Part shown: piece after piece, positions 1 through 4,429 of the stretch | Layout: the number at the start of each line of letters is the position of its first letter | Position numbering within the stretch: position 1 is the first letter of the stretch | IMG/VR virus record: IMGVR_UViG_2706794688_000003 | Strand: one strand, 5' to 3' | Length of the DNA stretch: 4,429 nt | Source of the DNA: a virus | Lineage: Duplodnaviria; Heunggongvirae; Uroviricota; Caudoviricetes | Position numbers and translations under genes: made by a program | Notes under the pieces: generated by a model | Databases searched by the model: none | What the model was told of the DNA's origin: nothing | Seen by the model: only the letters and a program-made list of their open reading frames with translations

Positions 1-13
1 GTCCAATGTGCAT

Positions 14-48
14 AAAAAAATCCGGAAACAAGTGAGCGTTTCCGGATT
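14..48 (-). terminator. Rho-independent terminator downstream of the portal gene
   Basis: Minus-strand RNA would read AAUCCGGAAAC-GCUCACUU-GUUUCCGGAUU followed by a U-run (7 T in the DNA, of which the first two can pair in the stem). That is a 9-11 bp stem with a GC core and an 8-nt loop, about 30 nt after the portal stop. Confidence 0.6.
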
Positions 49-80
49 CTTACACAGCCACTGGATCGGTCAACTGATCC

Positions 81-1328
81 TTAACTGATCGGCATTACAC
101 CACCGGGACGCGGATTCATATCTTCCAGGTCGCGGCAGTCATTGGAAGAGTAAATTCCCCAGTTGATCCCGGTGGCGTAGGCTTCAAAACGGGACTTCAT
201 ATCCCCGCGCAGTAACGCCCCGGCGTTAAATTTGGCGTAATAAACGCCCTGCTTACTTTTTCGTACCAGTCCGGTGTTGATCCGCTGTTCGATGCGGGTC
301 AGATACGGCACCAGTGAATAGTTGATAAATCCCAGCCCCAGCTCTTCGATATTGTTGAAGGTGGCGCGATCGGTGTTCTGCACCATGTGCAACGGCACCC
401 GGAACAGACGACAGATTTCTTCCAGCTGAAACTTGCGGGTTTCCAGGAACTGACTGTCCTCGGCGTTCAGCGCCATCGACTTCCAGTCCAGCCCCATTTC
501 CAGAATCATCGGGCGGTGAGCATTGCCAAGCCCCGTGTGACACTCCTCAAAATCTTTCTTCAGACGCTCGTAAGCATCCGGCGTGAGCTTTTGTTCCGTA
601 CGCAACACACCGGATGTCACCGCACCATTACTAAACAACCTGGCACCGTGCTCCTCGGTTGCCGCTGCCAGTGAAATGGCCTCACGCGCATACGCAATGG
701 GATTCAGCCCGACAAGTCCATCCAGCGTCAGGGTGCGCACATGCCAGATTTCATTCTGGGTCAACACATCCACGGAACCATCCGGAAACGTCACCTGATA
801 AACCGGCTGCCACTGGCTGTTCAGCTTCGGTTCCACACAGCCCGGATCTATCGGAAGAAGCTCCACCACTTCTCCCAGTGCCTTTACCTTGTAGGCGTAA
901 AAATTCCCCCGTAGACACAGGCAGACAATAACCAGCTCCCAGAATTCCTGCGGTGTCATGTAGCCATTAGGTTTTGCCGAAACCAACTTATGCAGTCGTT
1001 CATCCACCGCCCGTGTTTTCAGGGTACCGCTGATTTTGTAGAGACTGCAGGGCAGCATACCAACAGACTCTGCCAGCACCCTGACGCAAGAATAGACCGC
1101 CGTCAGGCGCATGGCCCGCTGGCTACTGATCCGCTTTCCGGTATAGGTGTCGTATGACAGCCCGATAGCATCAGCAGTTCTGCTGGCGTGGTCACCGGCA
1201 CATCGCTTTTTCGTTGAAATAATCCCGAAAAGAACACTATTTACCTCCGCCGACAGACTGCCGTGTACGGTCGAGATATCGCGCCACCAGCCACGACCAG
1301 AACAGGCACAGCGCCCCGGCAACAACAA
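81..1328 (-). CDS. Phage portal protein, HK97 family; the 5' end and start codon are uncertain, with a possible frameshift near the N-terminus
   Basis: Long minus-strand ORF with portal-typical motifs ([72 protein letters not shown]). The listed ORF starts at TTG, not ATG, and overlaps the upstream 60-aa gene by 92 nt. The first in-frame ATG is at 1112. A better-placed GTG at 1237 is in a different frame. Stop TAA at 81-83. Confidence 0.85.
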
Positions 1329-1419
1329 AACCCGCCGGGGGATAAATCAGCCAGGCACCATACGCCAGCAAAAGCGCACCCAGCACGCCCACCAGAGGCG
1401 CGAGAATCAGCATGATCAT
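1237..1419 (-). CDS. ymfR: Small two-helix membrane protein between terminase and portal; probably YmfR-like (e14 prophage)
   Basis: 60-aa [63 protein letters not shown] with an ATG start and a good SD, lying 11 nt after the terL stop. It has two hydrophobic helices followed by a basic tail. Its stop (TAG 1239-1237) overlaps a GTG that looks like the true portal start. The ymfR assignment rests on my recollection that E. coli K-12 e14 carries a 60-aa ymfR between its terminase and portal remnants, and I have not verified the sequence. Confidence 0.6.
1244..1248 (-). promoter_or_regulatory. Shine-Dalgarno (GGAGG) in front of a candidate GTG start for the portal gene
   Basis: Minus strand reads GGAGGTAAATAGTG; GGAGG is 6 nt upstream of the GTG at 1237-1235, which overlaps the upstream gene's TAG stop. 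Confidence 0.45.
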
Positions 1420-1430: not shown

Positions 1431-3164
1431 TTAAAGCGAGCGGATCCCGTAGGACTCAATGTGGTCAGACAGCGTGTCTTCTTTCTCGTACAGCATGGCT
1501 CTGCCAACCGCCATAATCAGCGCAACTGCACCATCGATTTTGTTTTCCGCCTGCTCTTTGACGGGTTTCACCACATCATCGTTACCCGGCATGTTTTTGC
1601 CGACCACGTTGCCGATACACCAGGTCATGATGGGATTGCCGTCATGATGAAAACGTCCCGATTCAATCGCTGCTTCCAGCTCTTTCATCGGATCGGACAT
1701 ATTGGTGAAGTTCTGGACGATAGTGACGGGATTCAGGTCTTCATCAGCAAGGTCATGTGACAACCCGGTCGCCCCGAAGGGGTCGATGGGTGACTCACTG
1801 ACCGGGCTGATTTTGTTCGCCGCTTTGGCCTCCTCGAGGATGTAGCGATAATCCACCTCCGCACCATCGGTAACGGTCAGAACGCCCATTTCCACCCATT
1901 TCTGAAAGCGTTCGGCTGTCCGTCGATCTTCATTTTTCTCGACGCTGTACACCGTGTCATACGGTACCCAGAAACGCGGGGCCACACTGTAGTAATGCGT
2001 TTTACCGTCAATCTCGCGGGTATAAAGTCGCGCCATGCTGTTCATATCCAGCTTACGCGCCAGGTCAAAGGCCAGAATGCACGGCTGCCCCTCGAACTGC
2101 TCAAGGGTCAGTGATTTATCCTCGCAGCTCTGCCAGCTCACCAAGTTGAAATACGCCGAACGCGCCGACACCCAGATATTGAGGTGTTTTGTTTTAAAGA
2201 CGTTTGCCAGACGGGCGTTATTTTTCGCACGCTGCTGCTGACTTAACAAAAATTCGCGATAAACCGACACGCCAATATTTGGATTGGCTTTTTCCAGCAC
2301 CTGCGGGCCGGTCCAGTCGTCACCTTCATCAACGGTATAGATGATCCCGAACAGTTCATCGTTAGGCACCGAGCCGTTGAGCATCTCGATGACTTCCCGC
2401 CGCTTGTCGTAGCACGGCCCCTCAATGTTGTACCCGGCGGTGGTGATGGCCCACATCAGTGGCTGACGTCGCGCCCCCATCCCGGTAAGCATTGTGGTAT
2501 AAAGCGCATCGGTGGCATGCTCGTGATATTCATCAACCACGGCACAGTGGGGTGATGAACCATCACCTGGGTTGCCGATCAGCGGTTCAAACCGCGCGCC
2601 ATCCTCCGGACGGTTCATGTTTGAGGCGTTAACCTCAATCCCGAACGCTTCCGTCAGCATGGGTGTGCGTTTACACATCAGTCGCGCCGGGCGAAAGACT
2701 TCCCACGCCTGTTTCTCTGTCGTGGCACCGGAATACACTTCCGCGCCAAACTCGTTATCACAGGCAAAACAATACAGGGCAACACCGGCAGAGATTGCTG
2801 ATTTGCCGTTCTTACGGGGGATTTCGGTGTACACCTCCCGGAAGCGGCGCAACCGGGTGCCTTTATTGACCCAGCCAAACGCACAGCAGATCACAAATAG
2901 CTGCCACGGCTCCAGCGTGATGGGCATCCGTTTGAATGCCCACTCCCCCTTGGTGTGCGGCAACAGCTGAATAAATTTCGCGGCCCGTTCAGCCAGGTCC
3001 TTGTCGAAGCGGTAACGAAACGACTTACTTTTTTCCGCCATCAGGTCATCAAGATGGCGCTGGCAGGCCTGAATCACAAACTGGCAGGCAACAATCTTTC
3101 CGCGCACGACATCCCGGGCATACTGATTTGCAGCATTTACGTTGGGGTAAGATTTCCGGCTCAT
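1431..3164 (-). CDS. Terminase large subunit (Terminase_1 / HK97-like type)
   Basis: 577-aa ORF with an ATG start at 3164-3162 in an ATGA overlap with the terS stop. It has a Walker-A-like EIPRKNGKS motif in the N-terminal ATPase domain and a C-terminal nuclease-like region. Position after HNH and terS and before the portal is canonical. Stop TAA at 1431-1433. Confidence 0.93.
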
Positions 3165-3543
3165 GATTCGATAATTTTCAGAAACGGGTTAGTGGCTTTC
3201 TTCTGCCCCGCCAGGCCAATCAGACGCTGGCGGCTGCTGGGGTCGAGTCCGAGCATTGCCCCCGTGCTGCTCATCTCGGACTCCTGTTCTTTTTTGGCGG
3301 TCAGCTCCGGATTTTTGACCCTGCCGCCCATTGCACCGGTGATGGTGTTGCCCTGTATGGCAATATTTTTCACGGCACGTCGCCAGAACTCATAGGCCAC
3401 GCACCACCGCTCAAGTACCGCCAGGTCAGTCACGCACAGCAGGCCCTGACCGCAGAGTTCTTTGGTTGTCAGTTGCCACATGATCGTGGCGAGAGGGAGA
3501 TCTTCTTCAGCGAACCACTCTGGTGGCTCAACACCTTTGATGG
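3161..3543 (-). CDS. Terminase small subunit (P27 family / Terminase_4-like); 5' end lost in the N run
   Basis: The visible C-terminal 127 aa ([126 protein letters not shown]) match the P27-family pattern P.W...A...W..L...L...D...L..YC, NPEL and GL.PSSR.RL. Stop TGA at 3161-3163 overlaps the terL ATG. The family is usually about 150-170 aa, so the start should lie in the gap. Confidence 0.8.
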
Positions 3544-3788
3544 NNNNNNNNNNNNNNNNNNNNNNNNNNNNNNNNNNNNNNNNNNNNNNNNNNNNNNNNN
3601 NNNNNNNNNNNNNNNNNNNNNNNNNNNNNNNNNNNNNNNNNNNNNNNNNNNNNNNNNNNNNNNNNNNNNNNNNNNNNNNNNNNNNNNNNNNNNNNNNNNN
3701 NNNNNNNNNNNNNNNNNNNNNNNNNNNNNNNNNNNNNNNNNNNNNNNNNNNNNNNNNNNNNNNNNNNNNNNNNNNNNNNNNNNNNNNN
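3544..3788. other. Run of 245 N (assembly or scaffold gap, or masked sequence)
   Basis: Continuous n characters from 3544 to 3788. The six-frame track translates them as X, fusing two unrelated genes into one 287-aa ORF. Confidence 0.99.
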
Positions 3789-4024
3789 TTCGCCTCGCTC
3801 ACCACACCGACACGCAGACACAACTGACACAGACCTTTATCGCGCTTCAGAATACGGGCACGAATCACCGTCCATTTTGAGCCATAGCCACGCTGGTGGC
3901 GGCTCAGTCCGCGCTGGTGCTGCACCCAGCCTTCACCGCGATGTTTATCGCAGTAACCCGAACTGTCTGTGGTTGTACCTGCACATCCACGCTTACGGCA
4001 GGCACGTGGGATTAGTGATGGCAT
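3789..4024 (-). CDS. Phage HNH endonuclease, terminase-associated; 3' end lost in the N run
   Basis: ATG at 4024 with a GAGG RBS. N-terminal 78 aa MPSLIPRACRKRGCAGTTTDSSGYCDKHRGEGWVQHQRGLSRHQRGYGSKWTVIRARILKRDKGLCQLCLRVGVVSEA has a Cys-rich zinc-binding N-terminus and the RGYGS.W...R..IL.RD..LCQ.C pattern that precedes the catalytic HNH motif in phage HNH nucleases. The catalytic motif itself would fall inside the Ns. Confidence 0.78.
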
Positions 4025-4066: not shown

Positions 4067-4429
4067 CTACTTAATGCACTGAGTGCGGATATACTCCTGT
4101 GCCCCTTCCAGTTGCATCTGCATCGTCATCAGCCGCTCTCTGAGGGTGAAATAATCCCGTTCAGCGGTGTCTGCCAGTCGGGGGCTGGTTGCATTATCCA
4201 CGCCGGAGGCGGTGGTGGCTTCACGCACTGACTGACAGACTGCTTTGATGTGCAACCGACGACGACCAGCGGCAACATCAGCGCGCAGAGTTTCATTTTC
4301 AGCTTTCGCATCAGCTAACTCCTTCGTGTATTTAGCATCGAGTGCATTAACATCACGCTGTCTCTGCTGCATGTCAGTAATGGTTGCGTTCGCCAGCTTC
4401 AGTTCTCTTGCGTTTTTGTCGCGCTGCTC
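4067..4429 (-). CDS. Rz: Rz i-spanin (lysis protein), 5'-partial: the reading frame runs open to the window edge
   Basis: Minus-strand translation ...[120 protein letters not shown] is near-identical to phage lambda Rz as I recall it. The frame stays open upstream of the ATG at 4372 to position 4429, so the real N-terminus lies outside the window. Stop TAG at 4067-4069. Confidence 0.9.
4129..4311 (-). CDS. Rz1: Rz1 o-spanin, outer-membrane lipoprotein, fully embedded in the +1 frame of Rz
   Basis: 60-aa [63 protein letters not shown] with an ATG start. It has a signal peptide plus lipobox (LVVVG-C), a penta-proline stretch, and close similarity to lambda Rz1, and it lies wholly inside Rz in another frame. 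Confidence 0.85.

Follow-up and report, generated by a model that had tools for sequence, protein, structure and literature searches.

Portal gene with a one-base deletion and an IS4 truncation in a phiP27-like Shigella sonnei prophage

Known relatives and the gene order of the window

The closest intact relative of the portal gene described here is that of phiP27, an Stx2e-converting phage; SfI, SfIV and ST64B are ~91% identical. In phiP27, the genes for an HNH protein, a P27-family small terminase, a large terminase, a 60-aa membrane protein and the portal protein (L38, NP_543090.1) follow one another in this order, and the complete 413-aa portal is succeeded by protease, capsid and connector genes. 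A homologous portal gene is also situated in e14, a defective prophage of Escherichia coli K-12, with ~93% nucleotide identity over the stretch considered here. This gene, which we take to be beeE, starts at the same GTG, overlapping ymfR, and retains the correct frame; it is cut after 136 codons, where it abuts a remnant of baseplate J. IS-driven pseudogene formation and decay are well known in Shigella genomes, and the genome of S. sonnei Ss046 was described by Yang et al. in 2005, as cited in PMC5447701.

The window, by which we mean the whole stretch of 4,429 nucleotides that was analyzed, is 100% identical to S. sonnei Ss046 (CP000038). It is a remnant of a phiP27-like prophage of S. sonnei, and is neither e14 nor K-12 DNA. 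Its exact large terminase protein is encoded in many assemblies, CP000038.1 among these, and exact copies are found in S. sonnei genomes. A published source gives CP000038.1 as S. sonnei Ss046 (PMC5447701). All genes of the window are on the minus strand, and from HNH to portal they have the same order as in phiP27:

4429-4067, minus strand: Rz spanin gene enclosing a putative Rz1 frame
4024 downwards, minus strand: HNH endonuclease gene
3788-3544: run of N
ending at 3161, minus strand: 3' part of the P27-family small terminase gene
1431-3164, minus strand: intact large terminase gene (577 aa; Pfam TerL_ATPase and TerL_nuclease), upstream of the portal gene in the same operon
1237-1419, minus strand: ymfR-like gene for a 60-aa membrane protein, at the same position in E. 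coli prophage A36, K-12 e14 and phiP27
1237 downwards, minus strand: HK97-family portal gene (Pfam PF04860, 358.8 bits)

The ymfR-like gene is annotated as ymfR or as a membrane protein in A36, K-12 e14 and phiP27. Inside the Rz gene, in another frame, an ORF of 60 aa (4129-4311, minus strand) encodes a lipoprotein-like signal and a proline-rich stretch, which by eye resembles the classic Rz1 o-spanin arrangement. Where the window has its 245 N, complete S. sonnei genomes have 348 bases of sequence, a difference in length that points to a scaffold gap and not to masking that preserves length. These 348 bases cover the 3' part of the HNH gene, the initial 112 nt of the small terminase gene and the intergenic sequence between the two, whose counterpart in phiP27 contains the cos site. 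A 287-aa ORF at 3161-4024 is an artefact that fuses the HNH and small terminase genes across the Ns.

The portal gene scores 358.8 bits against Pfam PF04860 (cut-off 39.1). When the frame is repaired as described below, the protein scores 263.6 bits (cut-off 112.05) against TIGR01537 portal_HK97, the NCBIfam HK97-portal equivalog model, and covers profile positions 3-343 of 343. The large terminase and ymfR-like genes precede the portal gene as in a head module, but IS4 and host genes come after it. Instead of a single frame of ~413 codons, there is a change of frame between codons 21 and 22, and codon 380 is the last of the gene. It is a member of the HK97 portal family by descent and not an intact gene. 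Compared with phiP27, the locus differs by a 1-bp deletion and by IS4 after codon 380.

The start of the portal gene and the missing base

The features of the portal gene are as follows:

1244-1248, minus strand: Shine-Dalgarno motif GGAGG of the portal gene, read from the sequence
1175-1237, minus strand: portal codons 1-21, the true 5' end, in the GTG frame (tblastn and starts of RefSeq homologues)
1174-1176, minus strand: 1-bp deletion, where a GG pair has lost one G (a single gap column in DNA alignments)
1103-1105, minus strand: premature TGA of the shifted GTG frame, preceded by 44 codons
98-1174, minus strand: portal codons 22-380, read in the main frame and free of additional stops and indels (Pfam PF04860, tblastn)
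1-97, minus strand: left end of IS4 (TAATGCCGATCAGTTAAGG...) in place of portal codons 381-413 (matches E. coli IS4 copies)

An earlier, sequence-only reading of this DNA had proposed that the portal gene begins at the GTG at 1237 and that a frameshift separates this start from the rest of the gene. Its description of the 5' end was correct in every statement. GGAGG (1248-1244) is separated from the GTG (1237-1235) by a spacer of 6 nt, TAAATA, and the TAG (1239-1237) of the upstream 60-aa gene overlaps the start as TAGTG, as in phiP27. The GTG frame runs for 44 codons and is closed by the TGA at 1105-1103. The main portal frame opens after a TGA at 1349-1347, and between this stop and the ATG at 1112 it contains neither ATG nor GTG, only the TTGs at 1328, 1325 and 1322; starting at 1112 gives an ORF of 343 aa.

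The GGAGG motif is conserved in DNA alignments with phiP27, E. coli A36 and K-12 e14. The RefSeq portal coding sequences of A36, AST20, K-12 e14 and phiP27 start at the homologous GTG or ATG, in each case overlapping the stop of the gene for the small membrane protein, and the N-terminus of the homologues is (V/M)FFSGLFQRK. Intact portals starting in the main frame would have spoken against the proposed start; none was found, and the TTG-extended frame is used by none of the homologues examined, which favours the GTG. The TTGs at 1328 and 1325 were rejected as true starts, since both are within ymfR, in a different frame, and the N-terminus that they predict is matched by no homologue. Neither the 44-aa ORF nor the 60-aa ymfR-like protein had a match in Pfam or NCBIfam, for which both are too short to inform. 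The 44-aa product had no exact match in the protein collection; such an ORF is skipped by gene callers, so that this result says nothing about the DNA.

The portals of the two E. coli prophages A36 and AST20 are intact and served as tblastn queries. Residues 1-21 of the A36 portal match the GTG frame (-1) at 1237-1175 with 90% identity (E = 4e-8), in agreement with the proposal that the first 20 residues of the 44-codon frame are an HK97-family portal N-terminus. Residues 22-380 of the intact portals match the main frame (-3), ending at position 99 (E = 0); for A36, the identity is 93.9% up to residue 380. The homology changes frame after residue 21, and this switch indicates that the arrangement of the GTG and main frames is not a chance pattern.

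At the point of the switch, the window reads CTGCT where phiP27, the two E. coli prophages and K-12 e14 read CTGGCG. In the alignment the homologues have GAGCTGGCGGA and the window GAACT-GCTGA, with one gap column; therefore, one G is missing at 1175/1174. When a G is inserted after 1175, a single open frame results that is continuous with the rest of the portal gene. Because of the shift after codon 21, translation from the GTG at 1237 runs for 44 codons and stops at the TGA (1105-1103). The single base predicted to be missing somewhere between 1105 and 1237 is thereby located. The sequence-only reading also mentioned that e14 carries a decayed portal, which is true; its lesion is a different one, because e14 keeps the G, and the lesions of e14 and of the window are independent.

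Over residues 1-380, the repaired gene has 97.1% amino acid identity to the phiP27 portal. The two differ synonymously in 68 codons and non-synonymously in 10, implying that until recently purifying selection maintained this allele as a working gene. The lack of further stops in the main frame is likewise attributed to a recent inactivation.

The IS4 junction at the 3' end

Homology to the 413-residue portal extends as far as residue 380 (window 99/98), and alignment with E. coli IS4 and with intact portals places the junction at 98/97. Window positions 97-1 can be aligned base for base to an annotated E. coli IS4, and they match copies of IS4 in 2649 E. coli genomes. IS4 takes the place of the last 33 portal codons and supplies the five terminal codons of the ORF (VMPIS) together with its stop (83-81). 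The window holds only 97 bases of the element, among them the terminal inverted repeat TAATGCCGATCAG...; full copies of IS4 are 1426 bp long and have a DDE transposase. In S. sonnei the corresponding copy has a length of 1426 bp, ends with ...CTGACTGGCATTA and encodes a 442-aa protein with Nterm_IS4 and DDE_Tnp_1 domains.

Two of seven complete S. sonnei genomes have this 1426-bp form, followed by raiA/pheA. In the other five the element measures ~2762 bp owing to an inserted IS3-family element, and bamE/recN are next. These two arrangements indicate that S. sonnei strains differ by an IS-associated rearrangement at this junction (L004-L010, about 9068-11830). Within ~2-3 kb beyond IS4 in the seven complete genomes, there was no target-site duplication, no remainder of the portal gene and no phiP27 head gene, protease and capsid genes included.

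The IS4 truncation is a second lesion, outside the coordinates considered by the sequence-only reading, which had missed it. The expectation that one restored base would yield a portal of roughly 385 aa stands as far as the joining of the frames is concerned; that product is not the whole portal. Intact homologues have 413 aa, and the repaired protein is still truncated because IS4 replaces the C-terminal codons.

Two further observations concern the element itself. Just inside its left end, at window 25-62 on the minus strand, is a terminator-like hairpin followed by a T run, AATCCGGAAAC-gctcacttg-GTTTCCGGATTTTTTT; it is situated upstream of the IS4 transposase gene and is identical in E. coli IS4 copies. 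The 12 bases that flank IS4 in the portal gene (98-109, GTCCCGGTGGTG) resemble the 14-bp target duplication CAGCCCGGAGGCTG of an unrelated E. coli IS4 copy (L014, 1601-1613), a likeness that hints at a target-site preference of IS4.

Alternative readings and consequences for annotation

All 14 S. sonnei loci that were read, Ss046 (CP000038.1) included, carry the 36-mer that spans the deletion, and 10 of them are identical to the window over the entire shared stretch. Every one of 40 E. coli matches, an even sample from 1394 records, spans one base more than the query. Among the E. coli complete genomes searched, no record has this allele or the deletion, and the best match to this stretch is 95.9% identical. 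At least 1000 contigs have the 343-aa ORF that the lesions create, and the named members of its cluster are all S. sonnei. The 36-mer had no exact match in the genome-contig collection, where S. sonnei perhaps has no separate species representative. Single-base indels are the commonest assembly error, and the sequence-only reading had allowed for a base dropped by the sequencer or assembler from a gene that is intact in the organism. Two S. sonnei assemblies have private 1-bp indels elsewhere in the segment: compared with the window and the remaining genomes, L009 (CP021144.1) lacks one base of the ymfR-like gene, which is uncalled in that record, and L018 (GCA_040188945.1) lacks one base of the large terminase gene, present there in two parts of 194 + 341 aa. 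Both indels probably reflect errors of assembly or decay specific to the strain, and they indicate that sporadic differences do occur, unlike the shared portal deletion. The latter is identical in 14 of 14 loci from independent assemblies and affects a GG pair, not a long homopolymer; the nearby sequence has just two homopolymers, TTTT at 1231 and AAAAA at 1211, and neither has changed. Moreover, IS4 truncates the gene independently. Because the deletion is shared by 14 loci and at least 1000 contigs, with the extra base present in E. coli and no homopolymer at the site, we regard it as a real mutation that, to judge from these sequences, seems to be fixed in S. sonnei; the probability of a sequencing or assembly indel is negligible. 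The sequence-only reading had also raised a programmed -1 ribosomal frameshift, which would join both frames during translation into a portal. The geometry fits, as a shift anywhere in 1237-1103 would join the frames, and the upstream start has a good Shine-Dalgarno motif. However, a scan of all frames over 1240-1100 revealed no slippery heptamer of the form X XXY YYZ, and the homology changes frame exactly at the deleted base. The portal is encoded in a single frame in every homologue examined, so that there is no conserved recoding signal, and the product would still be without its C-terminus and its capsid partners. As far as the nucleotide sequence goes, recoding is excluded, and we consider it exceedingly improbable.

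A shortened but functional protein might instead be made in the main frame, starting with the ATG at 1112 (343 aa) or with a TTG, at 1328 or 1325 (414-415 aa). Its frame has no further stops, and such ORFs are listed by gene callers and in GenBank as "portal protein" and "putative portal protein" (AAZ89394.1). This is very unlikely, however: the TTG extension crosses ymfR in another frame and matches the N-terminus of no homologue, the product from the ATG at 1112 is short of 42 conserved residues at its N-terminus and of the final 33 at its C-terminus, the head genes are lost at the prophage locus, and recent inactivation explains the absence of stops. It is also highly improbable that the 343-aa fragment from the ATG at 1112 has been retained as a dominant-negative portal subunit, directed at head assembly of superinfecting phages of the phiP27, SfI, SfIV and ST64B types. 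The sole observation in its favour is that the frame is still open, and this is fully explained by recent inactivation.

The portal gene of this phiP27-like S. sonnei prophage, of the type with an HK97 head module, is almost certainly a pseudogene with two independent lesions, and both lesions are real, exactly located and reproducible across assemblies. Loss of one G from the GG pair at 1175/1174 shifts the frame after codon 21, and IS4, joining the gene after codon 380, removes the last 33 codons. The DNA beyond IS4 is host chromosome, so that the prohead protease, capsid and tail genes no longer adjoin the portal gene. A functional portal is presumably not made. Real pseudogenization had been considered plausible in the sequence-only reading, and the deletion shared by the 14 S. 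sonnei loci bears this out.

The case is that of an already sequenced, ordinary two-hit pseudogene in an IS-eroded prophage. Its scientific weight is small, since a point deletion together with an IS element represents routine prophage decay in S. sonnei. The value lies in annotation. The 343-aa "portal protein" of many public records and the 414-aa "putative portal protein" of Ss046 have artefactual starts; the correct annotation has its start at the GTG at 1237, a frameshift at codon 22 and an IS4 truncation after codon 380. As a frameshifted prophage gene truncated by IS4, this portal gene is typical of the IS-driven pseudogenes of Shigella, and in five of the seven complete genomes the truncating IS4 is itself interrupted by an IS3-family element. 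Both lesions are apparently fixed in S. sonnei, as part of the IS-driven decay of its genome.
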